From positions 77,301 through 141,300 of the forward strand of contig NZ_NVQC01000023.1 of NCBI RefSeq assembly GCF_003044035.1: a stretch of 64,000 bases of DNA, in the 5' to 3' direction. A program made the position numbers and the translations under genes. Under the pieces are notes generated by a model. It was not told where the DNA came from and did not search any database. It saw nothing but the letters and a program-made list of their open reading frames with translations. Position 1 is the stretch's first letter. Every line of letters starts with the position of its first letter. The DNA is from Candidatus Methylomirabilis limnetica. Its GTDB lineage: Bacteria > Methylomirabilota > Methylomirabilia > Methylomirabilales > Methylomirabilaceae. Below, piece by piece: positions 180 through 56,855 of the stretch.

Positions 180-1358
180 ATGAAAGTCATCGGGCTCATG
201 TCTGGGACGTCGGCGGACGGAATCGATGTCGCCCTTCTGGAGATCGGTATCAACAAAGGGCTGCCGCAGCTCCGGCTGCTGCGCTTCGCGGTATTTTCTT
301 TTCCCAACGGGCTCCGGGAGCGAATTTTGCGAGTGGCAGACGCTGGATCGGGTGCCACCTCTGAGATCTGTCGTTTGAATGTTCTGCTTGGTGAGCTTTT
401 CGCGAAAGCGGCAATCTCGGTGGCCCGGAGTGCCCGCGTGCCGCTACGGGACGTGGCGCTCATTGGTTCGCACGGGCAGACCATCGCCCACCTCCCTGAC
501 CCTGCGGTTGAACACGGGGTATCGGTCCGCTCCACGCTACAGATCGGGGAGTCATCAGTCATTGCCGAGCGGACTGGCGTCACGACTGTGGCCGACTTCC
601 GCCCTCGGGACATGGCGGCGGGCGGCGAGGGCGCGCCGCTCACCCCTTATTTGCATGCGCTGCTCTTTCGGCATCCTCGTCGGGACCGGATTGTCCTGAA
701 CCTGGGTGGGATCGCCAACCTCACCTTCCTGCCGAGGGGCCGCGGCCTGCGCGGCGTGTTGGCGTTTGACACGGGACCGGGCAATGTTTTGATCGATGGG
801 CTTGTGGCACGCCTGACCGGCGGCGCGATGAGCGTTGACCTGGATGGCCGGATCGCCGCCTCTGGGGAGGTAGATCCGCGTCTGCTGCGATGGCTCATGG
901 CTCATGCCTACTTTCGTCGCAAGCCACCCAAAAGCACGGGGCGGGAAGAGTTTGGGCCGACACTGATCGACGCCCTGCTCCGCCGCGCGGCAGCCCGTGG
1001 CATTACAGAGGAGGATCTAGTGGCAACTGTTACAGCCTTCACGGCGCAGTCGGTGGCGCTCCACGTCCGACGTGAACTTCCACACAATACCGTTTCGCCA
1101 GAACTGATCACCTGTGGCGGCGGGGCCAACAACCCGATGCTGATCAAGGGACTTGAAGCCGCGCTGCCTGAAAGCCGTCTCCTTTCCGCTGATGAGGCTG
1201 GCTTTCCAGGGCGGGCTATCGAGGCCTCAGCCTTCGCACTGCTCGCCTACCTCACCGCCCACGGCCTGCCAGGCAATCTGCCCCGCATCACCGGGGCGAC
1301 CCATAGCGCGATCCTGGGCAAGATCGTTCCGGGACGGGCATTTCAGGGGCTACGATGA
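180..1358 (+). CDS. anmK: anhydro-N-acetylmuramic acid kinase
   Basis: N-terminus MKVIGLMSGTSADGIDVAL is the hallmark AnmK ATP-binding motif. Length about 390 aa. Start moved to the internal ATG at 180. Confidence 0.85.
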   Translation: MKVIGLMSGTSADGIDVALLEIGINKGLPQLRLLRFAVFSFPNGLRERILRVADAGSGATSEICRLNVLLGELFAKAAISVARSARVPLRDVALIGSHGQTIAHLPDPAVEHGVSVRSTLQIGESSVIAERTGVTTVADFRPRDMAAGGEGAPLTPYLHALLFRHPRRDRIVLNLGGIANLTFLPRGRGLRGVLAFDTGPGNVLIDGLVARLTGGAMSVDLDGRIAASGEVDPRLLRWLMAHAYFRRKPPKSTGREEFGPTLIDALLRRAAARGITEEDLVATVTAFTAQSVALHVRRELPHNTVSPELITCGGGANNPMLIKGLEAALPESRLLSADEAGFPGRAIEASAFALLAYLTAHGLPGNLPRITGATHSAILGKIVPGRAFQGLR

Positions 1359-2092
1359 CAAATCCAGCGTACTATGAAGCCGTGGTTCGATTGCTCAGCG
1401 AGATCCAGCGAAGCCAGGCGGAGGCGATCGACCGGGCTGCCGATCTGATCTTCTCATCCCTCGTGGCTGACGGTGTCCTGCACATCTTTGGAAGTGGTCA
1501 CTCCCATTCAGTGGCCGAAGAGGCGTTCCATCGCGCTGGGGGGCTGGTTCCCGTCAATACCATGACCGAGCCGTTTCTGAGCCCGCTCACGTCTCCAAAG
1601 AAGAGCGGGCGGCTAGAGCGGCTCAGCGGCCTTGCGGTGATTCTACTCGACTACCACGATCCGCAGCCCGACGAGGTCCTCATCATCGTCTCCAACGCCG
1701 GGATCAACCCGGTCTCAGTCGAGTTAGCGTTGGAAGCGAAGAAGCGAGAACTTATGGTCATCGCGATCACGTCGCTCCGTCACTCCCAAGCCGTGGCCTC
1801 GCGCCATCCGAGCGGCCAGCGCCTCTTCGAGGTGGCTGACCTCGTTATCGACAACTACGGCGAGGCCGGCGATGGCGCCCTCACCTTCCCCGGCCTTACG
1901 GCGAAGGTGGGGCCGACCTCACTTATAGCCGGGGCCTTCATCGTCAACTCCATCGTCTGCGGCGTGGTGGCGCGATTCCTCGCGAAGGGGCTTACGCCGC
2001 CAGTCTATCTCAGCGCTAATCTACCAGGTGGCGATGAGCATAACCGCCAGCTTGAGGCGAAGTATAAAGGACGGATCAAATTATTGGGTTGA
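1355..2092 (+). CDS. SIS-domain sugar-phosphate isomerase-like protein (UPF0309-like)
   Basis: HIFGSGHSHSVAEEAF sugar-isomerase signature. ATGA overlap with anmK suggests an operon. It could act as a MurQ-like etherase, but that is not demonstrable from sequence. Confidence 0.65.
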   Translation: MTNPAYYEAVVRLLSEIQRSQAEAIDRAADLIFSSLVADGVLHIFGSGHSHSVAEEAFHRAGGLVPVNTMTEPFLSPLTSPKKSGRLERLSGLAVILLDYHDPQPDEVLIIVSNAGINPVSVELALEAKKRELMVIAITSLRHSQAVASRHPSGQRLFEVADLVIDNYGEAGDGALTFPGLTAKVGPTSLIAGAFIVNSIVCGVVARFLAKGLTPPVYLSANLPGGDEHNRQLEAKYKGRIKLLG

Positions 2093-2123
2093 GAAAGCGC
2101 CAGACTTGATTAGCCAACAAACC

Positions 2124-2163
2124 CAACCCCCCTTTGGCAAAGGGGGGGTACGGGGGGATTTCA
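2124..2163. repeat. poly-C/poly-G hairpin cluster (cccccctttggcaaaggggggg ... ggggggattt); candidate bidirectional terminator
   Basis: Inverted C-run and G-run, followed by a G-run and T-tract, in a 96-bp intergenic gap. Same motif at 7823, 12810 and 29733. Confidence 0.5.
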
Positions 2164-2188
2164 ACCGTGGGCGATTTTCTGAGCAACT

Positions 2189-3769
2189 ATGTATGATCTG
2201 ATAATTCGCGATGCGAACCTCATTGACGGGACTGGCGCCTCCGCACGACGCGCCGACCTTGCCGTCGTAGGTGACCGTATCGCAGAGATCGGGCATATCG
2301 CCCCATCCTTGGGGCATCGGGTGATCGAGGCGGCCGGCCTTACGCTTTCTCCCGGCTTCGTGGATATCCACTCGCACTCCGATTACCATCTCCTGCTTCA
2401 GCCGACGGCTGACAGCGCCGTTCGACAGGGGGTGACCCTCGAGATCGGGGGCAATTGCGGATATGCGGCCGCCCCGATATGGGGACCCTGGCTGGAAGAA
2501 CGGACGGCCACCTATCGTAACCTCTACGGCCTCGACCATGCCTGGCAGGCGGTGGCGGACTACTTCGCGCGACTGGAGGCGACTGGGATCTCCGAGAACT
2601 TCGGTCTCCTGATCGGTCATAACACGCTGCGGGGCTCAGCCATGGGCGGTGCTAACCGCCCGCCCTCATCGCAGGAACTTGAGGCGATGATCGAGGGAGC
2701 GCGACAAGGGATGGCCGAGGGCGCGCTTGGTTTGTCCACAGGTCTGGTGTATGCCCCGGCCTGCTTCTCCAGGCCTGACGAGCTTGCGATGATTGCAGCC
2801 GCAGTGCGGGAGGCTGGCGGCATCCTCACCTGCCACATGCGGAGCGAAGGCGACGGGCTGATCGAGGCGATCGATGAAATTATCGGAGTGGCGGAGAAGG
2901 CGGAAATCCCCCTTCAGATCTCTCACCTCAAGACATCTGGAGAGCGCAACTGGCCGAAGCTTCACGAGGCGCTTCGGCGTATTGAAGAGGCGCGAGCACG
3001 CGGCCTTGACGTTTCCTGCGACCGGTATCCCTACACTGCCTCCAACACCGGGCTTCAAGCGGTCCTGCCGGATTGGGCCTTAGAAGGCGGGCAACGGGAT
3101 CGGACCGAACGGTTAGGCAACCCGGCAGCGCGCGCCCGGATTACGCAGGAACTGACCACGCACTACCCACCTGATTACTGGTCCCGACTGATGATCTCCG
3201 AGGTCACGCGCGAGGAGAATCGACGGTATGAGGGATTGCGTGTCGCTGAGGCGGCGAAACTGGCCGAGACGCAGCCGGTCCACTTCGTCCTCGATCTGCT
3301 GCTAGCAGAGCAGATGCAGGTCGATGCTATCTTCTTTACCATGTGTGAAGAGAACCTGGAGGCGATCCTAGCACAGCCATATGCGATGATCGGGTCAGAC
3401 TCCGGGTGTCGCGGACACGAAGGTCCGCTCAGTCATGGTCGGCCTCATCCAAGAACCTTCGGGACCTTCCCGCGGGTGCTGGGCCACTTCGTGCGGGAAA
3501 GGCGTCTACTCGATCTGCCAACCGCCATCAGGAAGATGACCTGGGATCCTTGCCGCAAGCTCGGTATTCTGGACCGGGGACATCTGCAGCCTGGCTGCGC
3601 GGCCGACCTTGTCCTCTTCGACTCGGCGACCGTGTCGGACAGGGCGACCTACGAGGCCCCGTTACAGTACCCCACCGGTATCCATCACGTCTTCGTCAAC
3701 GGGGTCCCGGTCGTTGAGAGCGGCGAGCACACCGGTGCCAGACCCGGCCGCGTCGTGCGGAGGGCATGA
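2189..3769 (+). CDS. N-acyl-D-amino-acid deacylase family amidohydrolase (D-aminoacylase)
   Basis: MYDLIIRDANLIDGTG...GFVDIHSHSDY metal-binding motif of the D-aminoacylase/amidohydrolase family. 526 aa. Confidence 0.75.
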   Translation: MYDLIIRDANLIDGTGASARRADLAVVGDRIAEIGHIAPSLGHRVIEAAGLTLSPGFVDIHSHSDYHLLLQPTADSAVRQGVTLEIGGNCGYAAAPIWGPWLEERTATYRNLYGLDHAWQAVADYFARLEATGISENFGLLIGHNTLRGSAMGGANRPPSSQELEAMIEGARQGMAEGALGLSTGLVYAPACFSRPDELAMIAAAVREAGGILTCHMRSEGDGLIEAIDEIIGVAEKAEIPLQISHLKTSGERNWPKLHEALRRIEEARARGLDVSCDRYPYTASNTGLQAVLPDWALEGGQRDRTERLGNPAARARITQELTTHYPPDYWSRLMISEVTREENRRYEGLRVAEAAKLAETQPVHFVLDLLLAEQMQVDAIFFTMCEENLEAILAQPYAMIGSDSGCRGHEGPLSHGRPHPRTFGTFPRVLGHFVRERRLLDLPTAIRKMTWDPCRKLGILDRGHLQPGCAADLVLFDSATVSDRATYEAPLQYPTGIHHVFVNGVPVVESGEHTGARPGRVVRRA

Positions 3770-3772
3770 CCA

Positions 3773-4498
3773 ATGCGTCCGAGAATCGGAATCACGAGCT
3801 GGCATTATCGGGATGACGAAGAGCGGTGGGAGGCGGTACTGGAAGGTTACTCCCGCGCCGTCCTCGGCGCTGGTGGCTTGCCGCTGATCCTTCCTGTTGC
3901 CTCCGCGGAGCCTGCCCTGATCGAGGCATACCTGGAGACGATCGACGGGCTCATCTTGACCGGAGGGGCCGATATTCACCCCTCCTTTTATGGACAGACC
4001 GTTCTCGAACGATGCGGTGAGATCGACGAAGAACGCGATCGCTTCGAAATGGAGTTGGTTCGTGCGGCCCGCAATCGTGACCTGCCGCTCTTAGGGATCT
4101 GCCGCGGCCTCCAGGTCGTCAACGTGGCCCTGGGCGGCAGCCTATATCAGGACCTCTCTTACCGGCACGAGACCGACCCGGCCCACCAGAGCCCTCGCGA
4201 GCGGCGCGGGGAGCCAGCCCACGCGGTGGCGATTATGGAAGGCTCTCGCCTCGCTCAGTTGCTCGGTGTTCGAGAGTTGGACGTGACCAGCACCCACCAC
4301 CAGATCATCCGCGACCTGGCGCCCAATCTTACGGTCAACGCGGTCGCTCCAGACGGGGTCATCGAGGGGGTTGAGGGCGCTGGACGCTTTCTTCTCGCCG
4401 TCCACTGGCACCCCGAGCGGATGGTTACCCGCCACCCCGAGCAGCTCGCGCTCTTTCGGGCTCTCGTTGAGGCAGCCGGCACAGCCCATCGCCACTGA
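3773..4498 (+). CDS. gamma-glutamyl hydrolase-like class I glutamine amidotransferase (peptidase C26, PuuD-like)
   Basis: GICRGLQVVNVALGGSLYQD with catalytic Cys and downstream HHQ/HWHPE. Typical C26 length. Confidence 0.75.
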   Translation: MRPRIGITSWHYRDDEERWEAVLEGYSRAVLGAGGLPLILPVASAEPALIEAYLETIDGLILTGGADIHPSFYGQTVLERCGEIDEERDRFEMELVRAARNRDLPLLGICRGLQVVNVALGGSLYQDLSYRHETDPAHQSPRERRGEPAHAVAIMEGSRLAQLLGVRELDVTSTHHQIIRDLAPNLTVNAVAPDGVIEGVEGAGRFLLAVHWHPERMVTRHPEQLALFRALVEAAGTAHRH

Positions 4499-4593
4499 TT
4501 ACCTTGCTGTCGCACTGAGGGCAGCCACAAGGGCTGCCCCTACGTCCCGCGCAGCAAATCCCCCTTATACTCTCCCCGCACCGCTCTTCACCG

Positions 4594-5232
4594 CTACCCC
4601 ACGCACTCCTCCTTCGCAGCGGTAATGAGATCGTCGAAGGGCGGGGGTACGTCTTTGATCGGCTCATGCCAGCTCCTCCCCTGCTCCTTCTGCTTCTTAC
4701 GTAACGCAATCCACATAGTACACGGCCGACCGTTATGAAGCCAGAGCCGTAGGCCGATGCGCTCTGCATTGATCTCCTGACCTAGGGTATACTCTCTGCT
4801 CCCCACCATTCCATCCACAATTCCTGTCAGCAGGAGACCTCCAGGCACAACAGCGATAGCGGTCAGCTCTGCGGCCTGGCGACTGTCTGAAACATCCGTT
4901 TTGCTGACGGGATGGGCCAACAGGTCGTGACCGAGACTGTGGGCGATAAGCTGGGCCAACTCGTCGTCGGACGCATCATGAGCTGCCGGCTGGCTGATGT
5001 AAATGATGCCTGGGGCGATATTCCATTCGGAGGCCCGATCGTCGCCGACGATGTGGAACGCGAACGATCTTCGGCGAATACTCAACGGGAGCGTCTTCAG
5101 CAACATGTGAGCGCTCCGCTCCACGCGGATCTTTTCAGTGGGGGCAGAAAGGACTTGCAGACCGGCACCTGCACTGCACGCGGTGAGCGCCAGCATGCAG
5201 AAAGCTCCAACCGCTCGACCTAGACGCTTCAC
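4594..5232 (-). CDS. putative lipoprotein, M48-peptidase-like but possibly degenerate (AHSLGHD instead of HExxH)
   Basis: Signal peptide plus lipobox LALTACSA. Has an HxxxH-like motif but no Glu, so catalytic activity is doubtful. Confidence 0.4.
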   Translation of the reverse strand: MKRLGRAVGAFCMLALTACSAGAGLQVLSAPTEKIRVERSAHMLLKTLPLSIRRRSFAFHIVGDDRASEWNIAPGIIYISQPAAHDASDDELAQLIAHSLGHDLLAHPVSKTDVSDSRQAAELTAIAVVPGGLLLTGIVDGMVGSREYTLGQEINAERIGLRLWLHNGRPCTMWIALRKKQKEQGRSWHEPIKDVPPPFDDLITAAKEECVG

Positions 5233-6311
5233 GACCCCTTGTCGTCCATCCCGACGCTCTCGGCGAGGCGCCGGTGGGCATCACAGCCCACAACCGCGCG
5301 GATCTCCCCGGTGGATGCTGCCATCTTACGGTGCAGGTGCTGGGCCTTGGCATCGGCGATTCGTTTGCACGAAGCCAGCACCCGCGCCTCGGATAGCCGC
5401 CCGGTCTCTACCGCCTCGGTCACGACAACAAGCGCCTGTCGTTGCGCTGCCTCGTCCTCGCAGATCAGCATGAGATCGCCTCCGGCCTCAATGAACCGAA
5501 CAGCCGCCTCACCGGGATGGGTGCTGTCTGCGATCCCCTTCATCAAGAGGTCGTCACTAATGACCAGATTACGAAAGCCCAATTCCTGCCTTAGCAGATC
5601 GGTCAGAATACGTCGCGATAGCGTGGCCGGATGTTCCGGGTCCAGGGCAGGCAGCAGGAGATGAGCCGTCATCAGCGCCGGGATACCTGCCTTGATTGCG
5701 TATGCGAATGGGGCAAGTTCTACTGCCGAGAGGCGGCCAACGTCGTGCGGCACGACTGGCAGCGCCAGGTGAGAATCGACTGTCGTATCACCGTGGCCAG
5801 GGAAGTGCTTGCCTACCGCAATCACACCCTCGGACGCGAGCCCTCGGTAAAAGGCGATCCCATGTTGGGCCACCACCTGCGCGTCTGAACCGTAGCATCG
5901 ACCCGCCATGACCGGGTTTGCCGGATTGCTCAGGACATCAAGCACCGGCGCCATATTCATGTTGATCCCCACCACCATGAGCTCCCTGGCTATCGCGGAA
6001 GCCACCGCATGGGTCAGCTCGGTCGAGCCAACCGCTCCAACCGCTGAGGCGGATAGCCACCGGGTAAAGGGGGGTGCGAGGCGACTAACCTTCCCACCTT
6101 CCTGGTCAATAGCGAAAAAGAGTGGGGTCGGCGAGGCAACTTGTAGTGCGTTCGTAAGAGCCGCAATCTCCTCCGGATCGCCAAGGTTGCGCCCAAACAG
6201 GATCAAGCCGCCGGGAGTGAGGTCGCGCACGAAGGTCTTGAGGGCCTCGGATGGCGTGTGACCTTCAAACCCAAGGATGAAGAGCTGACCGATCGCCTCT
6301 CGCAGGGTCAT
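5229..6311 (-). CDS. nagZ: beta-N-acetylhexosaminidase (GH3)
   Basis: LFILGFEG, INMNMAPVLDV and KHFPGHGDTTVDSH motifs of NagZ/GH3. Fits a cell-wall recycling context with anmK. Confidence 0.85.
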   Translation of the reverse strand: MTLREAIGQLFILGFEGHTPSEALKTFVRDLTPGGLILFGRNLGDPEEIAALTNALQVASPTPLFFAIDQEGGKVSRLAPPFTRWLSASAVGAVGSTELTHAVASAIARELMVVGINMNMAPVLDVLSNPANPVMAGRCYGSDAQVVAQHGIAFYRGLASEGVIAVGKHFPGHGDTTVDSHLALPVVPHDVGRLSAVELAPFAYAIKAGIPALMTAHLLLPALDPEHPATLSRRILTDLLRQELGFRNLVISDDLLMKGIADSTHPGEAAVRFIEAGGDLMLICEDEAAQRQALVVVTEAVETGRLSEARVLASCKRIADAKAQHLHRKMAASTGEIRAVVGCDAHRRLAESVGMDDKGS

Positions 6312-8530: not shown

Positions 8531-9058
8531 TTACGAGACAAAGACCCACACCGTGCCCCTCCATCGCTCGATCGAGCGTTCAACTGTGAGCTTGAGCCCC
8601 ACCCGATAAGGCGCCTCGATCGACTTGCCTCCTGACGCCACTGGCTTGCCGTCTTTGGCGAGGGCGATGACCGTCACCCGGATCGTGCTATTGGGCTCAA
8701 TGGTGGTGGGCTCCGTTGACGACCCGTCCGGCCCAGCCTTCACCCCAATCGGGTACGACATACTGTCTGCCGTGATGAATATCCCCTCTGTCCAGACCAC
8801 CCGGATAGTAGAGGCGGTAGGATTTGAGAAAGTGAGACTCACCTCTGCTGATCCAGCATTCGCTTGATCAATCTTGAACGGCACAGGACCCATCCCCTGG
8901 GCAGACTGAACCGTCACCTCATGCTTGAGCGGAGACAGCCTGATCGGAGACTTTATCGACCTGAGCTCTGGCGGCAGGAACTGACACCCTGACAGCCACA
9001 ACAGGGCCACCAACCCTCCCATACCTGCGATCCTCGACAAAACCCTATCAGACAACAT
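8531..9058 (-). CDS. hypothetical secreted/lipoprotein
   Basis: Signal peptide with LWLSGC lipobox. Beta-rich composition, no known motif. Confidence 0.4.
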   Translation of the reverse strand: MLSDRVLSRIAGMGGLVALLWLSGCQFLPPELRSIKSPIRLSPLKHEVTVQSAQGMGPVPFKIDQANAGSAEVSLTFSNPTASTIRVVWTEGIFITADSMSYPIGVKAGPDGSSTEPTTIEPNSTIRVTVIALAKDGKPVASGGKSIEAPYRVGLKLTVERSIERWRGTVWVFVS

Positions 9059-9145
9059 CCCTACCTCCTCCTCGGCTCTACCCCTTACCGTGTCCGGCGT
9101 TCGTCAAAGGCTGCTGCATATTGCTCGATCAGCCCTTCATCAGCA

Positions 9146-9216
9146 GTAACTACTCAGGTGTTTAGGCTGTAGGCTGAAGGCTGTTAGCCGCTGCGCATAG
9201 ACCGAATCAAGGCGCC
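9146..9216. repeat. MITE-like element, truncated copy (left TIR plus part of subtype-B core)
   Basis: gtaactactcaggtgtttaggctgtaggctgaaggctgttag followed by gcgcatagaccgaatcaaggcgc, matching the 37337 and 36024 copies. Confidence 0.6.
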
Positions 9217-9402
9217 CAGGACTTTCTTCTCCTCGGCCATCAGGCGGCGGACCAACTCCAAGGCCGCCTTGATCTGGGCGCTCCTCCACCGGCCACGCAT
9301 TGATCGCTGACGCATATCGCTGCTTTGGCCCCATGCCCGCCATCCGCCCTTTTTACCCTTGCAAGCAGAAATCTGTCACGCAAAAGCCCTCGGCCGGTCG
9401 CC

Positions 9403-10638
9403 CTAAAAAATTGAGGTCACCAGCAATAAGAGCGTGAGCACAACTATCACGAAGGCCGTTCCCCAGCCGATTAGGTTGGAGATCGGCGAGTTCACCTGCG
9501 CGCCCATGATCTTTCGGTCGTTGATCAGCAGGAGCATGAAGACCAGGACAGCCGGGAGCAGGATGCCGTTTAAGGTCTGGGAGAGATACATGATGGTGAT
9601 GAGCGGCGCCTTGGGCCAGAGGATCAGCAGCGCGCCGGCGCCCACCATGCTGAGGTAGATGCTGAAGAACCCGGGAGCCTCGCGAAAGGTCCGATTGATG
9701 CCCGTGTGCCAGCCAAGCCCCTCGCAGACCGCATAGGCGGTGGAGAGGGGCACGATGGCCGCGGAAAAGATGGAGGCGTTCAGCAGACCCACGGCAAAAA
9801 GGAGCGTGGCGTACTGGCCTGCGAACGGTTCGATCGCCATCGCAGCCTGTTCGGCCGTCTCGATCTGAATACCGTTCGCATTGAGGGTGGCACCGCACGC
9901 CACGATGATGAAGAACGCCACGGCTGACGCGACAATACTGCCTGTCCAAACATCGAACTTGACGTACCCATAGTCCTGGCGCCGAACTCCCTTATCGACG
10001 ATCGACGCCTGGATGTAGAACTGCATCCAGGGCGCAATGGTGGTTCCCACGAGGGTGATGAGCATAGTGAGATAGTCGCGCTCGATATGGAAGGTTGGCC
10101 TGGCAGTCTGCCGCAGGACGGTGGGCCAATTGGGGCTGGCCAGAAAGGCCGACACCAGATAGACGACATAGAAGAGGCTGGCGCCGAGGAAGATCCGTTC
10201 CACGAGGCGGTACGTCCCCTTGACGACCAACCAGCCCACCAGGAGCGCGGCCAGCGGCACCGTTGCGTATCGGCTCCACCCAAAGATCTCCATGCTCGCC
10301 GCCACGCCCGCGAATTCGGAAACGGTGTTGGCCAGGTTCGCCAGCACGAGAACCACCATCACGCCAACAGTGATCCGGACCCCAAACCGCTCGCGGATCA
10401 GCTCGGCCAACCCCTTGCCGGTCACGACCCCCATCCGCGAGCCCATCTCCTGGACGATGCCGAGGGCGATGGTGATGAACAACAGCGACCAGAGCAGACC
10501 ATAGCCGAACTGGGCGCCGGCAAGGGAATAGGTCGTGATCCCCCCCGCGTCCTGATCGACGCTGGCGGTAATGATCCCCGGGCCCATGATGGCGAGGAAA
10601 CGGAGGATCCGCCGCTTCTTGATCCGCGAAAGCCGCAT
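9403..10638 (-). CDS. NRAMP/SLC11-family transporter with NRMT-like (putative Mg2+) site substitutions
   Basis: Full NRAMP fold (GPGIITASVDQDAGG...AQFGYGLLW). The TM1 motif is DAGG where canonical is DPGN. The TM6 motif is TTIAPW where canonical is A-x-x-MPH. Confidence 0.8.
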   Translation of the reverse strand: MRLSRIKKRRILRFLAIMGPGIITASVDQDAGGITTYSLAGAQFGYGLLWSLLFITIALGIVQEMGSRMGVVTGKGLAELIRERFGVRITVGVMVVLVLANLANTVSEFAGVAASMEIFGWSRYATVPLAALLVGWLVVKGTYRLVERIFLGASLFYVVYLVSAFLASPNWPTVLRQTARPTFHIERDYLTMLITLVGTTIAPWMQFYIQASIVDKGVRRQDYGYVKFDVWTGSIVASAVAFFIIVACGATLNANGIQIETAEQAAMAIEPFAGQYATLLFAVGLLNASIFSAAIVPLSTAYAVCEGLGWHTGINRTFREAPGFFSIYLSMVGAGALLILWPKAPLITIMYLSQTLNGILLPAVLVFMLLLINDRKIMGAQVNSPISNLIGWGTAFVIVVLTLLLLVTSIF

Positions 10639-10662
10639 CGAGTGTCCTGGGTGGTGAAACGG

Positions 10663-11970
10663 TTAGATGTACTTTTTCGCTGCCCGTTGTTTCCATATCA
10701 TCGGGAGGAGTAGGTTCAGGACGTCATCGACAGTGACGATCCCTCTGAGCTCCCCCCCCTCATCCACCACCGGCACGGCCATTAGATTGTACCTGGTGAA
10801 GGTCTCGGTGACCTCGCGCAGGCCGGTCTCCGGCCGAACACTGATGGTTTGCCGCTCCATGATCTCATCAAGCCGCTGGCTCTGGTCGGCCAGGATCAGC
10901 TCCCGAAGGCTCAGTACCCCTACCAGCCGATCCAGGTCGTCGGTCACGTAGATGTAGTAGATAGTCTCGGCCTCGGCCCCCTCCACAGATCGGAGCCGAC
11001 CAATCACGTCGGCCACTAGGAAGTCTGGCCGCAGAGCAAACGCCTCTGTGGTCATGAGCCCACCGGCGGTATCTTCCTCGTGCGTGAGCAGCTCAACCAC
11101 ATCCTGGGCACCATCTTCCTCCATCGTATCGAGGAGCTCCTGCGCCTTCGCCTCCGGCAGGTCGCTCAAGATGTCGGCCGCCTCATCAGGCTCCATGCGC
11201 TCCAGGATATCGGCGGCCTGCTCACTCTCCATCATCTGGACCATCGAGGCTTGAACCTCCGGCTCCGTCTCGGTCAGCGTCTCGGCGGCGGTCTCTTCGT
11301 CTAAGGACTCCAACACCCCTGCTCGCTCGCTCGGACTGAGTTCCTCGATGATGTCGGCGATGTCAGCCGGATGCAGCTTCGCCAGTTTGGCATAGGTTGC
11401 GCGTCGCTTGGTCTTGGTCAGCTCAGTCTCTACCGGCTCGACAACATCCCAGGAGATCGTCTCACGTTCCAGGTGGGTCTTGAACAGGCTCGCGATCTGC
11501 TCAGCCATTGCCTCGGAGCCGAGATGCCTGAGTAGGCCACGCAGACCTGCCTCGACCGCCACAAGCTGCAGCCGCCCTTCTACCTCCTGGAATTCAAGAT
11601 CGTTGACCCGGATCACCTTGCAGCGCTTGGTATCCACCACCTTATGGTCCAGGAGGCTCTGCGCCAGCTCCATCTCCTCAGGCCGCAACGGAACAGGCTG
11701 AAGCGCCTTAGCCGCTTGAGACAGATGAATCGCCGCCGGCCCCCGCTCAATACGCGCCACAGCCTCCCACGGCAAAATCAGCTCTTCCTTCTCGGATGTC
11801 AGGATCGCGAGCTTGGTCACCGGGGGCAAGGCCCCCAACGGTAAGAGGATCAGGTCCTTAAGGTGACCCACAAGCTGCCCATCGGTATCGAGTACCGGAC
11901 AGCGACGCAACGCGGAGAAGAGGAGAGGCATACTCTCCGCCGGCATTTGACCCTCTACCTCCCCCTTCAT
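10663..11970 (-). CDS. MgtE N-terminal domain + tandem CBS-domain protein with no membrane pore
   Basis: Acidic MgtE_N helical region (EELSPSERAGVLESLDEETAAE...) followed by two CBS motifs. Ends at ...MIWKQRAAKKYI with no TM segments. 25 bp upstream of the NRAMP gene. Confidence 0.7.
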   Translation of the reverse strand: MKGEVEGQMPAESMPLLFSALRRCPVLDTDGQLVGHLKDLILLPLGALPPVTKLAILTSEKEELILPWEAVARIERGPAAIHLSQAAKALQPVPLRPEEMELAQSLLDHKVVDTKRCKVIRVNDLEFQEVEGRLQLVAVEAGLRGLLRHLGSEAMAEQIASLFKTHLERETISWDVVEPVETELTKTKRRATYAKLAKLHPADIADIIEELSPSERAGVLESLDEETAAETLTETEPEVQASMVQMMESEQAADILERMEPDEAADILSDLPEAKAQELLDTMEEDGAQDVVELLTHEEDTAGGLMTTEAFALRPDFLVADVIGRLRSVEGAEAETIYYIYVTDDLDRLVGVLSLRELILADQSQRLDEIMERQTISVRPETGLREVTETFTRYNLMAVPVVDEGGELRGIVTVDDVLNLLLPMIWKQRAAKKYI

Positions 11971-12590
11971 ATCTGACCGCTTCGCATGCCTCTGCGGACC
12001 AGCGCATTGAAGGTGGAGGAGTTGGCAATCTCCTTTTTGTAGATGAGCGGATCGTTCTGGAATCGTTTCTGGATGTAGCTGTCCACTCGATCCTTTAACT
12101 CGTATGGCAACGGTCTATCATCACCTGTAGTCTCAGACGTGTCAGCCGGATCGCCGTACATCGGGTGAAGCTTCCTTAGTGCTGCTGCCGCTTGCCCTGG
12201 TGTGTGACCCTCCCCTGACCCTTTTAGACAAATTGTATACCGCTGGAGCCCGTCAACCTTTTCGATGAGTACTCGCTCAATGGCAGGAAGATTCCACCAC
12301 CACCGTATATCTGCATCAGTCACACCTTCCTGTCTCTTCCTGGCAAGTTGTTCTTTAATGAGCGGATCTGTCGATTCTCGTTGAAGCAACTGATCTCCGG
12401 AATCTTGAGCCATGCCATCTGCCTTCGAGCGTTTCAACTCCTCTTTCGCGTCATGGATCATGTCTCTAGCGGTGCGTAGTGCCTCACTGGCCGGTATGCC
12501 CATCATCGACTCAAACATCCGAGCATGCGTTGCCTCAAGCTGCCGTTCGTAATCTGACTGCTTTAAAAACAGATCGGAAAGGAAGCCCAT
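11967..12590 (-). CDS. hypothetical protein
   Basis: ORF in an operon (4-nt overlap with the MgtE_N/CBS gene). No motif recognised. Confidence 0.4.
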   Translation of the reverse strand: MGFLSDLFLKQSDYERQLEATHARMFESMMGIPASEALRTARDMIHDAKEELKRSKADGMAQDSGDQLLQRESTDPLIKEQLARKRQEGVTDADIRWWWNLPAIERVLIEKVDGLQRYTICLKGSGEGHTPGQAAAALRKLHPMYGDPADTSETTGDDRPLPYELKDRVDSYIQKRFQNDPLIYKKEIANSSTFNALVRRGMRSGQI

Positions 12591-12625
12591 TGGTAACCCT
12601 CCCTACGATTTTTACAAACCACAAC

Positions 12626-12762
12626 GTAACTACTCAGGTAGATAGGCTGAAGGCTGAAGGCTTTTAGGGGTGAGTAATGCGCGATCAAAGAAAACTCAGA
12701 AAAGGTCTTGAATGGCTCGATTCGTGCCTTGCGAGATAATTTATAACCTTCAGCTCAGTTAC
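12626..12762. repeat. MITE-like element (subtype A core, right TIR degenerate)
   Basis: gtaactactcaggtagataggctgaaggctgaaggc ... ggtcttgaatggctcgattcgtgccttgcgagataatttataaccttcagc. Confidence 0.7.
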
Positions 12763-12809
12763 GGGTGGAAAAATCTCCCCCCGACTTAATACATGCCGGG
12801 GCAGGCTCT

Positions 12810-12880
12810 AGCCCCTCTTTTCCAAAGAGGGGGACTATCCGTTTCCCCCTTTGAAAAAGGGGGATTAAGGGGGATTTTAT
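12810..12880. repeat. poly-C/poly-G hairpin cluster (two hairpins plus gggggatttt)
   Basis: cccctcttttccaaagagggg and ccccctttgaaaaaggggg. Confidence 0.5.
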
Positions 12881-12944
12881 AAAAACATACCACATTTTAT
12901 TTAATGATTTCCCGCCTATCACTGAATGGTTACTTCTTTACGTT

Positions 12945-13072
12945 CATTTTCGTTGAGGGTCGATACCCTGCGGCTTGCCGCGAGTTCGTCATACCGGCGG
13001 AAGCCGGTATCCAACAGGGCCGACTGGATTCCCGCATATCCAGTACGGGGCAGGCTTGTCAAGCACGGAATG
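12945..13072. repeat. REP-2 structured repeat (multi-hairpin, reverse orientation)
   Basis: ggtcgataccctgcggcttgccgcgagttcgtcataccggcggaagccggtatcc...gtcaagcacggaatgac. Contains the 8-bp stem ataccggc-GGAA-gccggtat. Confidence 0.65.
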
Positions 13073-13168
13073 ACAATCAAAAGAAAAGGACATCTGGCGC
13101 ACTATCCTCGTTTGTCCGTAGGCAGGAACGCAGCACACCTGCCGCATAGGAGGCGCAAGTTCTGTAGC

Positions 13169-15484
13169 CTAGTGGGCGCGGCTGACCTCAGCCTTGTCCG
13201 CTACGTCATCCTCCTTCACGATCGAGCCTCGCTTGCTGAAGAGCACCGACAGCCCCAGGACGGTCACGCAGGTCAAAACGATAATAGACCGAGTGCCAAA
13301 CCCAATTTCACGGATGGCCAAGGGTGCGATCAGGATCGCGACCAGGTTCATGACCTTGATCATCGGGTTGATGGCCGGCCCTGCGGTGTCCTTGAACGGA
13401 TCGCCGACCGTATCGCCGATGACCGCAGCCTTATGACAGTCAGTTCCTTTGCCGCCGAACAGCCCCTCCTCGATCTTCTTCTTGGCATTGTCCCATGCCC
13501 CGCCGGTATTCGCGAGGAACACCGCCATTAGCTGACCGGTGAGAATCGCTCCGGCAAGGAAGCCGCCAAGCGCAGGCGCGCCGAAGGCGAACGCGACCAG
13601 GATCGGGCTGACAATCGAGAGGACGCCCGGTCCCAGCAGTTCCTTCTGCGCCGCAGCCGTCACGATCTCCACGCACCGACCGTAGTCGGGCTTCTCCTTA
13701 AACTCCATGATCCCCGGCTTCTCCCGGAACTGCCGACGGACCTCTTCAACCAGAAGAAAGGCCGCCCGGCTCACCGCCTGGATCGCAAAGGAGCAGAAGA
13801 GGAACGGAACCGCCCCACCGATCAGGAACCCGATGAAGACCTCTGGCAGGTTTACCTGGATCCCCGTCTCTAAGAGGTGCGCCTCGTCGATAAAGGAGCG
13901 GAAGAGGGAGACGGCCGCGATGACCGCGGTGGCGATGGCCAGCCCTTTCGTCAGGGCCTTGGTCGTATTGCCGACCGCGTCGAGCTTGGCGACAATCCGA
14001 TGTGCCTCAATTCCAGAGGGCGTCCTGGGGGCGTTCTTCAGCGCGCCAGACATCTCGAAGATGCCGCTGGCGTTGTCGGAAATGGGGCCGAAGGTATCTT
14101 CGGCCAGCACGAAGCCGGTGGTCGCCAGCAGCCCCAGCCCGGCCAGGGCGATCCCATAGGCTGACAGCGAAACGCTCCCACCGAAGATGCTGTATGCGCC
14201 AAAGATAGTTGCGGCGATGGCCAGGATGGCCCACACGCTCGACTCGAGGCCTGCGGCAAACCCGGAGAGGATCAGCGTCGCCGGCCCTGTCCGGCTGGCA
14301 TAGGCAATCTCGGTCACAGGCTTCTTGTCGGTCGCGGTGAAATACTCCGTCAGCCACGAGATCACCAGCGCCAGGGCGATCCCCATCGTATTGGCCAGAA
14401 AGACGCGCCACCAGAGTGTGCCGTACTTCGGGCTCACGATGTCGCCAAGGTAAAAGTAGCTCACAATGAAAAAGCCGACAACCGAACTGAGCGCAGCTAC
14501 CCAGAAGCCGAAGTTGATCGGCTTCATCGGGTTCATGTCGGGATCATCCTTGCCCCGAACGCACCAGGTGCCGAGGATCGAGCCGAAGACACCCACGGCG
14601 CGGATCAAGAGGGGATAGATGATCAGGGCCAGGACGACCTTGGAGGCGCTGGCAGTACCGCCGAACGACTCGACAAAGTCCTTATCCAACATGGCCCCGG
14701 CTCCCAGGATAATCGCCGCCACCAGCGTCACCTCGTACGACTCGAAGACATCGGCAGCCATCCCGGCGCAGTCGCCGACATTGTCGCCCACATTGTCGGC
14801 GATCGTGGCGGCGTTGCGCGGATCATCCTCCGGAATCCCCTTTTCAATCTTGCCGACCAGATCGGCGCCCACGTCAGCCGCCTTGGTGAAGATGCCTCCT
14901 CCCATACGCATGAACAGGGCGGCGAGCGACCCACCAAAGCCAAAGCCAACCAGAATCTTCATCGCATTCTCTTTGAACATCAGGAAGATGATGGTCGCGC
15001 CCAGGAGCCCAAGGCCGACGGTGAACATCCCCGAGACGGTCCCTGCCCTGAAGGCGATTTCCAGCGAGCTCTTGAAGCTATGGAGAGCGGCGGCGGCGGT
15101 TCGCACATTGCCTTTCACGGCCAGCAACATCCCGACGTATCCGGCGCCATAGGAGGCTGCGACTCCCATGAGAAAGGCAAACGCTACGCCAAGAGGTAGG
15201 AGCATCCCTTCATAAAGCGTACGATACATGAAGAAGAGGCCGATTGTGATGGCGATGACGAACCAGATCATCGTCTTAACCTGGCGCGCGAGATAGGCCA
15301 TCGCCCCCTCTTCAATCGCCCTGGCCACATCCTGCATCGCCTGGCTGCCAGGGTCTTCTTGCATCGTCTTTCTTGCCAGGTAGGCCCCATACCCCAGGGA
15401 GATAAAGGCCGAGACCAGGACTAACCAAAGGATCTTCCATTCCTGCGGGCCAAAGGCTGGCAGTGCAACGTTCGCTTCACTCAT
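13169..15484 (-). CDS. hppA: membrane-bound proton/sodium-translocating pyrophosphatase
   Basis: 771 aa, multi-TM, GDNVGDCAGMAADVFESYEV and DNVGD motifs. Confidence 0.9.
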   Translation of the reverse strand: MSEANVALPAFGPQEWKILWLVLVSAFISLGYGAYLARKTMQEDPGSQAMQDVARAIEEGAMAYLARQVKTMIWFVIAITIGLFFMYRTLYEGMLLPLGVAFAFLMGVAASYGAGYVGMLLAVKGNVRTAAAALHSFKSSLEIAFRAGTVSGMFTVGLGLLGATIIFLMFKENAMKILVGFGFGGSLAALFMRMGGGIFTKAADVGADLVGKIEKGIPEDDPRNAATIADNVGDNVGDCAGMAADVFESYEVTLVAAIILGAGAMLDKDFVESFGGTASASKVVLALIIYPLLIRAVGVFGSILGTWCVRGKDDPDMNPMKPINFGFWVAALSSVVGFFIVSYFYLGDIVSPKYGTLWWRVFLANTMGIALALVISWLTEYFTATDKKPVTEIAYASRTGPATLILSGFAAGLESSVWAILAIAATIFGAYSIFGGSVSLSAYGIALAGLGLLATTGFVLAEDTFGPISDNASGIFEMSGALKNAPRTPSGIEAHRIVAKLDAVGNTTKALTKGLAIATAVIAAVSLFRSFIDEAHLLETGIQVNLPEVFIGFLIGGAVPFLFCSFAIQAVSRAAFLLVEEVRRQFREKPGIMEFKEKPDYGRCVEIVTAAAQKELLGPGVLSIVSPILVAFAFGAPALGGFLAGAILTGQLMAVFLANTGGAWDNAKKKIEEGLFGGKGTDCHKAAVIGDTVGDPFKDTAGPAINPMIKVMNLVAILIAPLAIREIGFGTRSIIVLTCVTVLGLSVLFSKRGSIVKEDDVADKAEVSRAH

Positions 15485-56507: not shown

Positions 56508-56855
56508 CTCCTTTCTCTTGAGCTATCCCAGGATACAGGTGTTGCGCTAGAAACTTGAACTCAGGTTAAAAAAAAGCCGCCTCCGCCTCTCGCGGATGGC
56601 GGCCCGACCACCCTCTGTCCTCCGAAAATAGCTAGACGCTATCTCCGGACCCCTCTGGAATAACCTGTCACAACGTTATGTCCTAAGAAGTCATTTTGAT
56701 GATCGGCGACAACCTCACAACACCCTACGAAGAGACCATTCGATGCGAACATGCGACCTCAGCAGGCGTCAGCTTCAGATGTGTCGACGCGTTACACTAA
56801 CGCTCACTATAGCCCTAAATCGAGTGCAGTCAAGGTCAATCAGGCTCTGTGCCCC

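Follow-up and report, generated by a model that had tools for sequence, protein, structure and literature searches.

Transporters of the NRMT clade, which make up a fourth class of prokaryotic Mg2+ importers, were named NrmT by Shin et al. (2014, PLoS Genet, PMC4072509); in that study two genes of Clostridium acetobutylicum complement for Mg2+, an ancillary MgtE-like gene adjoins most nrmT genes, and feedback regulation is proposed. The gene pair considered here is an nrmT locus of NC10 type, from a bacterium like Methylomirabilis. It lies in a stretch of 64,000 nucleotides (nt) of contig NZ_NVQC01000023.1 from Candidatus Methylomirabilis limnetica (‘the window’) and consists of two minus-strand open reading frames (ORFs): 9403-10638, encoding a transporter of 411 residues, and 10663-11970, encoding an MgtE-related protein (the ‘companion’) of 435 residues in its longest form. 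The same pair, in the same order and with the same idea of feedback, was described for C. acetobutylicum (Ca_c0685/Ca_c3329) and Acidobacterium capsulatum (Acp2976/Acp2977). Compared with those loci, the window has no M-box riboswitch (as in A. capsulatum), belongs to an NC10 (Methylomirabilota) host and carries an extra ORF of 207 residues.

The clade was defined through EleNRMT of Eggerthella lenta (structures 7QIA, 7QIC, 7QJI and 7QJJ), by the motifs DxxG and TxxA/T in the unwound stretches of transmembrane helix (TM) 1 and TM6, respectively, which replace the DxxN and A/CxxM of other NRAMP proteins (Ramanadane et al. 2022, eLife). EleNRMT carries Mg2+ and Mn2+ but not Ca2+, lacks the histidines of the H+ pathway and shows no H+ coupling; its authors extend uncoupled transport of Mg2+ and Mn2+ to the whole clade. 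Since these transporters are, on the EleNRMT work, uncoupled, the cell needs some safeguard against overload, and from 2014 onwards the neighbour derived from MgtE has been the obvious choice for such a brake; no direct test of it was found in the literature. EleNRMT was studied alone, and neither that paper nor a later one on SLC11 evolution discusses a partner. Beyond Shin et al. (2014), the library searched held no paper that links PRC-barrels with MgtE or Nramp proteins, or NRMTs with CBS domains.

The window locus itself is therefore nothing new in kind: the idea of an MgtE-like partner with a feedback role was already published, and a first, sequence-only reading of the window that arrived at it is an independent rediscovery. 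What goes beyond the literature searched is a set of comparative results that offer handles on the question of the brake, namely a tandem PRC-barrel, conserved across the partner family, together with that family's basic C-terminal tail; the retention of the ligands of the MgtE sites Mg4, Mg6 and Mg7, and not of those of Mg5, Mg2 and Mg3; and the existence of relatives of about 600 residues that possess the MgtE membrane domain, of which those with a degenerate pore are membrane-anchored and paired with NRMT genes.

The transporter

The product of ORF 9403-10638 is, from its homology, near certain to be an NRMT, and the identity of its MgtE-derived companion is equally well founded. The transporter matches the Pfam Nramp family PF01566, of NRAMP/LeuT-type fold, over positions 1-356 of 357 (E 9e-93), and its best match among all PDB sequences is EleNRMT (7qia; E 2.9e-111, 375.6 bits), with an alignment that runs without a gap over 403 residues (8-410 against 33-435) at a pairwise identity of about 46%. 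The next-best match, to a canonical NRAMP structure, falls to E 2e-26 and at most 96 bits, and none of the NCBIfam MntH models scores the protein above its cutoff. A pattern of NRMT rather than MntH type, as the sequence-only reading had proposed, is thus upheld.

That reading had also placed two motif substitutions, DAGG and TTIAPW, at the metal site. HMMER alignments to canonical NRAMP structures set DAGG over DPGN and TTIAPW over AxxMPH, and the substitutions therefore sit where they were said to. The site residues match those of EleNRMT, the tryptophan in place of histidine included, and Glu108 and Gln354 are kept as the counterparts of EleNRMT Glu133 (alpha-3) and Gln379 (alpha-10). The two histidine positions of the H+ pathway in TM6b are occupied by W204 and I209. 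Mutation of the EleNRMT residue equivalent to Thr199 (T224A) abolishes the interaction with Mg2+ (Ramanadane et al. 2022). Mg2+, rather than Mn2+, is the probable physiological substrate of the window protein.

A separate line of evidence comes from regulatory RNA. M-box riboswitches, scoring 131-137 bits, were identified upstream of three of 11 sampled orthologous loci, whose NRMTs are 53-56% identical to the window protein. In two of these (loci L022, positions 4451-4616, and L047, positions 4444-4614) the riboswitch precedes the companion gene, and in the third (L055, from a member of the Peptococcaceae, positions 5554-5720) it stands immediately before an NRMT gene without a companion. As Shin et al. 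(2014) reported, M-boxes at orthologous loci independently tie the NRMT clade to Mg2+; an upstream M-box is common in the clade but does not define it. A search of the whole window for the M-box family (RF00380) at the Rfam gathering threshold was negative, as was one of positions 11800-13300 at E<=5. The search for leader RNAs at E<=5 in that same interval returned a single match, to a miRNA family, which was rejected as spurious.

The companion protein

The companion contains, according to Pfam, an MgtE_N domain at residues 199-300 (E 1.7e-27) and two CBS domains (E 3e-20), along with a marginal PRC match at residues 19-42. The MgtE membrane domain (PF01769, the five-helix pore that bears the PX6GN motif and Asp432) was not found in the companion, which ends 14 residues past the second CBS domain; the protein is therefore not an MgtE channel, and the earlier description of a pore-less MgtE N domain joined to a CBS pair was accurate. 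The same truncation is evident against the NCBIfam MgtE model TIGR00400, of which only positions 11-251 of 450 are covered (181.8 against a cutoff of 232.75). The cytosolic domain of Thermus thermophilus MgtE (TtMgtE; 2yvy/2yvx) is matched with E 8e-39, and cytosolic MgtE structures are likewise the top Foldseek matches (E 1e-18) of an AlphaFold2 model of the full-length companion (mean pLDDT, the predicted per-residue confidence, 80.5). That full-length model retrieves only MgtE and CBS proteins, at a root-mean-square deviation of about 9 Å that reflects domain orientation. The companion thus has the N domain, the CBS pair and the Mg4, Mg6 and Mg7 ligands in common with TtMgtE (2YVY, 2YVX, 2ZY9), and differs from it by the absence of a plug helix and pore, by asparagine at Mg5, and by the addition of N-terminal PRC-barrels and a basic C-terminal tail. 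An LPxxWKKR-like tail recurs in most of the 68 companion orthologues (gathered from the genome scan described below).

The N-terminal extension had been taken for an unassigned leader of 130 residues; it is longer than that, at some 185-190 residues, and a separate AlphaFold2 model of residues 1-192 was used to classify it. From that model and from profile comparisons the extension is assignable as a tandem PRC-barrel. Only PRC-barrel proteins were returned by Foldseek for the model (the archaeal CdpB1/B2, RimM, the H subunits of photosynthetic reaction centres and MTH1859), with modest E-values of 5e-4 to 5e-2. The first barrel is marginal by PF05239 in the window protein (22.0 bits against a cutoff of 21.2), although the same family is precomputed for most companion homologues and is clearer in relatives (down to E 2.6e-12); its predicted structure has a pLDDT of about 90-95 (above 90 for residues 20-100). 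The second repeat was recognised by comparing the halves of the module with each other at the profile level (hhalign E 2e-5). Beta strands are predicted in it at residues 109-140, at a lower confidence (pLDDT 61-81 over residues 100-180), and it holds the best conserved N-terminal motif of the companion family, LLDkQvVD..G.KVvRVNDl. In Shin et al. (2014) the partner figures as a ‘small’ homologue of MgtE's cytoplasmic domain; the available parts of their article make no mention of a tandem PRC-barrel of about 185 residues.

The Mg2+ sites of MgtE, as assigned by Maruyama et al. (2018), were mapped onto the companion through its alignment with TtMgtE, and the conservation of each position was counted over the 68 orthologues. 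The Mg6 ligand D95 corresponds to D266 and is aspartate in 67 of them. Both ligands of Mg4 are also present, D91 as D262 (aspartate in 55/68) and D247 as D416 (52/68), while the Mg7 ligand E59 is represented by E230 (glutamate or aspartate in 51/68). Mg5 is different: D226 is replaced by N395, a position that is aspartate in only eight of the orthologues, and D250 by N419, where 48 of the 68 have aspartate or glutamate.

The CBS pair was also considered as a candidate for MgtE-like sensing of ATP. The phosphate and ribose contacts are kept (Tyr170, Arg187 and Asp188 of MgtE as Y339, R356 and E357), but the Phe227 that stacks on the adenine is L396 in the companion, and no more than 13 of the 68 orthologues have phenylalanine there; Asn203 is replaced by E372, at a position that is not conserved among them. 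Judged from these residues, binding of ATP by the companion looks unlikely.

Conservation of the gene pair

In order to establish how regularly the two genes occur together, one genome per GTDB species was scanned with patterns derived from the alignment of the window protein with EleNRMT, which yielded at least 592 loci of NRMT type. The best 80 of them were analysed; they cover a wide range of bacterial phyla as well as two lineages of archaea. At 68 of these 80, one adjacent ORF matches the N-terminal module, MgtE_N and the CBS pair together. Copies of the companion that are cut off at contig ends also occur. In 72 of the 78 assessable loci, which include bacterial and archaeal ones, a companion adjoins the NRMT gene; in 67 it lies immediately upstream on the same strand, at an estimated spacing of about -19 nt (an overlap) to 269 nt. 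The loci with no adjacent companion are L031, L032, L034 and L046, from Nitrospirota or unclassified metagenome-assembled genomes (including Magnetobacterium and Magnetominusculus), and L055 and L069, from Firmicutes.

The association was also approached from the other side, by searching the N-terminal 190 residues of the companion against 1.84 billion cluster representatives, which gave 974 matches at E<=1e-3. When proteins without TM helices were picked from these by the N-terminal module alone, an NRMT gene (DAGG with T-x-x-A/T) was found to follow all five that were looked up; with the degenerate-pore forms described below, the tally of such look-ups is nine out of nine. Over the 68 loci, moreover, the pairwise distances of the NRMTs and of the companions are correlated (Mantel r 0.73, a value that none of 1000 permutations reached), which shows that the two proteins share an evolutionary history. 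The pairing is not due to chance, and the partnership that the sequence-only reading had suggested is supported by this adjacency across phyla and by the correlated distances.

Long relatives of the companion

The search with the N-terminal module also retrieved a class of proteins of about 600 residues in which Pfam recognises PRC, MgtE_N, CBS and the MgtE membrane domain. These proteins, available as database sequences only, have the soluble architecture of the companion and in addition a plug helix and the five-helix membrane domain. Seventeen cluster representatives (P0137-P0266) were aligned to TtMgtE, P0230 aligning poorly. Most of them keep the acidic plug helix and have lost both the GN of the PX6GN motif and Asp432; P0157 alone keeps both. 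An NRMT-signature gene lies directly downstream of all four degenerate-pore forms that were looked up (P0148, P0161, P0153 and P0179), whereas none lies downstream of the intact-pore P0157, the only form of its kind examined; the sample as a whole is small. The loci concerned are L087, L088, L090 and L091 for the NRMT-paired forms and L089 for the unpaired one. The NRMT paired with P0148 (L087, 5006-6259) has a variant site, with cysteine for the first threonine of TxxA (GCTIAPW) and asparagine for the conserved glutamate of TM3.

Such a pattern of pore loss is expected if an MgtE paralogue paired with an NRMT, lost its pore and then lost its membrane domain. It can be suggested, tentatively and with rather less than even confidence, that the companion stands at the end of a series of steps by which a PRC-barrel MgtE channel was turned into a dedicated regulatory subunit of NRMT. 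The intact-pore long MgtE that stands alone would represent a first stage of this conversion, the degenerate-pore long forms, still anchored in the membrane beside an NRMT and with the plug helix kept, a second, and the forms without TM helices and with a basic tail, such as the window companion, a third. If the conversion did take place, the NRMT uniporters of bacteria and archaea would generally be two-component complexes, whose Mg2+ sensor was inherited from a different family of Mg2+ channels and whose PRC-barrels serve as the docking element.

A proposed regulatory role and its rivals

The function towards which the sequence evidence leans, and which we hold with moderate confidence, is that of an Mg2+-responsive cytoplasmic subunit that restrains an uncoupled NRMT importer. 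The proposal starts from observed features of the pair, that is, homology, site signature, domain architecture, conserved synteny and shared evolutionary history, and from these we infer physical contact between the NRMT and the companion, binding of Mg2+ by the companion and the direction of regulation. The NRMT site (Asp30, Gly33, Thr199, Ala202 and Gln354), enlarged and free of methionine, would admit largely hydrated Mg2+ and also Mn2+; the transporter is most likely an uncoupled importer driven by the membrane potential, because the proton pathway of the NRAMPs is missing. The upstream gene encodes the full cytosolic apparatus of a PRC-barrel-bearing MgtE paralogue from which the pore has been removed. 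Its product, probably a CBS-paired dimer as in MgtE, would bind cytosolic Mg2+ at the acidic sites that bridge the N and CBS domains (D262/D416, D266 and E230), would switch upon binding between open and compact states, and would dock on the cytoplasmic face of the NRMT through its PRC-barrels, its basic tail or both, so as to throttle uptake when the cell is replete with Mg2+. Such a brake would work post-translationally, on a uniporter that nothing else regulates, and, because the window locus has no M-box, may be the main Mg2+-responsive control there. On this proposal the companion would be a tidy case of the reuse of a sensor domain across unrelated transporter folds. The RCK rings of KtrA and TrkA are soluble, sense a ligand and gate a membrane transporter that is a protein of its own, KtrB or TrkH. 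As in the NRMT pair, their sensor gene stands beside that of the transporter; the folds are unrelated, and the likeness is one of analogy, gating by the companion being a proposal.

Several observations weigh against a brake. NrmT complements Bacillus subtilis without its companion (Shin et al. 2014), EleNRMT transports in proteoliposomes without one (Ramanadane et al. 2022), and at 6 of the 78 assessable NRMT loci no companion gene lies nearby, within 6 kb. Co-inheritance alone may account for the correlated distances of the two proteins, a correlation that does not tell it apart from co-adaptation. The plug-helix ligands of MgtE (E258 and D259, of sites Mg2 and Mg3) have no counterpart in the companion, and the ligands of Mg5 are asparagines in the window protein. 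In the only published test of regulation, Mg2+ rescue was no better when both A. capsulatum proteins were expressed together (PMC4072509); the assay looked for an improvement and was therefore blind to a brake. Finally, the NrmT of A. capsulatum, which has an MgtE-like neighbour and no riboswitch, gave full rescue of a B. subtilis mutant in Mn2+ uptake and rescue for Mg2+ only at low-millimolar concentrations, and so acted chiefly as an importer of Mn2+ (PMC4072509).

The last result also speaks in favour of the main rival, a manganese system in which an NRMT without a riboswitch imports Mn2+ and the companion senses Mn2+ or another divalent ion. Transport of Mn2+ by EleNRMT, and the lack of an M-box throughout the window, point the same way. 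Against this, the DxxG/TxxA signature is complete in the window protein, whose Thr199 is the equivalent of the residue that EleNRMT needs for the interaction with Mg2+; Mg2+ riboswitches control close NRMT orthologues; and it is the ligands of MgtE Mg2+ sites that the companion has kept. On balance a manganese system seems unlikely here.

A role as a cytoplasmic metal acceptor, chaperone or buffer, or as a factor for the assembly or localisation of the NRMT, instead of a gate, would account for a companion that is dispensable for transport; metal-chaperone activity is an alternative named by Shin et al. (2014). The protein is very acidic in its MgtE_N region, PRC-barrels are generic modules for protein interaction, and the assembly factors RimM and CdpB are among their structural matches. 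The residues that are conserved in the companion, however, are those of the regulatory interdomain sites of MgtE and not of a new high-affinity site, a chaperone would find little obvious use in a cytosol with millimolar Mg2+, and the long relatives, in which a membrane anchor and a plug helix persist, are built like a gating apparatus; we consider such a role improbable. That the companion is an independent CBS sensor of nucleotides or energy state, which merely travels with nrmT and is not functionally coupled to it, appears very improbable indeed. CBS pairs commonly bind adenine nucleotides, and the contacts Y339, R356 and E357 would fit such a sensor, yet the adenine-stacking phenylalanine and N203 are not preserved, and neither the adjacency at the assessable loci nor the unbroken run of N-module look-ups is what an uncoupled sensor would lead one to expect.

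Gene layout and neighbouring features

The coordinates of the two genes, their domains and the adjoining features are collected in the table. The start codon of the companion is likely the ATG at 11946 (M9 of the longest form), which gives a protein of 427 residues, because it is preceded by GGGGGAGG and because this length fits the nearest homologues, of 425 residues. Those homologues, up to 92% identical, come from Candidatus Methylomirabilis / NC10. The intergenic spacer between companion and nrmT, given as 25 bp in the sequence-only reading, measures 24 nt. The locus was scanned for promoters and terminators, the counts of which did not exceed shuffled expectation, and no terminator-like site was found between the two genes.

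Features of the nrmT locus in the window (residue numbers of the companion refer to its longest form)
Feature	Position	Strand	Basis
nrmT, NRAMP-related Mg2+/Mn2+ transporter (NRMT clade), 411 residues	9403..10638	-	Pfam Nramp, EleNRMT match
TM6 metal-site motif T199-T-I-A202-P-W204 (TxxA; canonical AxxMPH)	10027..10044	-	identical to EleNRMT T224-T-I-A227-P-W229
TM1 metal-site motif D30-A-G-G33 (DxxG; canonical DPGN)	10540..10551	-	aligned to EleNRMT D55..G58
Spacer between companion and nrmT, 24 nt, with AGGA ribosome-binding site 8 nt before the nrmT ATG	10639..10662	-	
Companion, soluble MgtE-derived protein: predicted tandem PRC-barrel, MgtE N domain, CBS pair and basic tail	10663..11970	-	
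Basic C-terminal tail LPMIWKQRAAKKYI, in place of the MgtE acidic plug helix and membrane domain	10666..10707	-	
CBS pair, residues 305-421, with D416, N395 and N419	10708..11058	-	Pfam, MgtE alignment
MgtE N domain, residues 199-300, with E230, D262 and D266	11071..11376	-	Pfam MgtE_N
PRC-barrel-like repeat 2 and helical linker, residues ~99-180	11431..11676	-	hhalign self-comparison, AlphaFold2
PRC-barrel 1, residues ~15-98	11677..11928	-	Pfam PRC, Foldseek, AlphaFold2
Upstream ORF, 207 residues, its stop overlapping the longest companion ORF by 4 nt	11967..12590	-	

The ORF of 207 residues may open the transcription unit, though in NC10 bacteria only. In the genome of Methylomirabilis oxyfera the order is the same (207-residue ORF, companion, Nramp gene), and the ORF is kept upstream of the pair at positions 5191-5814 of the locus sampled there (L081, from FP565575). 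No Pfam or NCBIfam family matched either this ORF or a 175-residue ORF downstream of the pair. Both were considered as core components of the system and rejected, being absent from all 80 non-NC10 NRMT loci.

Upstream of the 207-residue ORF there follow an intergenic region of 578 nt and a gene for an H+-pyrophosphatase. The intergenic region (12600-13168), in which no RNA family was matched, contains several C5/G5-rich stretches capable of forming hairpins, for example ccccctttttcaaaggggg and cccctctttggaaaagagggg, as well as an A/T-rich promoter-like site at 12894-12922 that is a weak lead only. In M. oxyfera (L081) the place of the pyrophosphatase gene is taken by small genes of toxin-antitoxin type (HepT, HigB, PemK, RHH and HTH_3; 237-4832), and, relative to the window, a RadC gene (8566-9303) is inserted directly downstream of nrmT. 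Far from the gene pair, at 56594-56652 on the minus strand, the window contains its sole Rfam match, an nhaA-I RNA (RF03057, classed by Rfam as a riboswitch) that covers the full model with 46.3 bits against a gathering threshold of 37.

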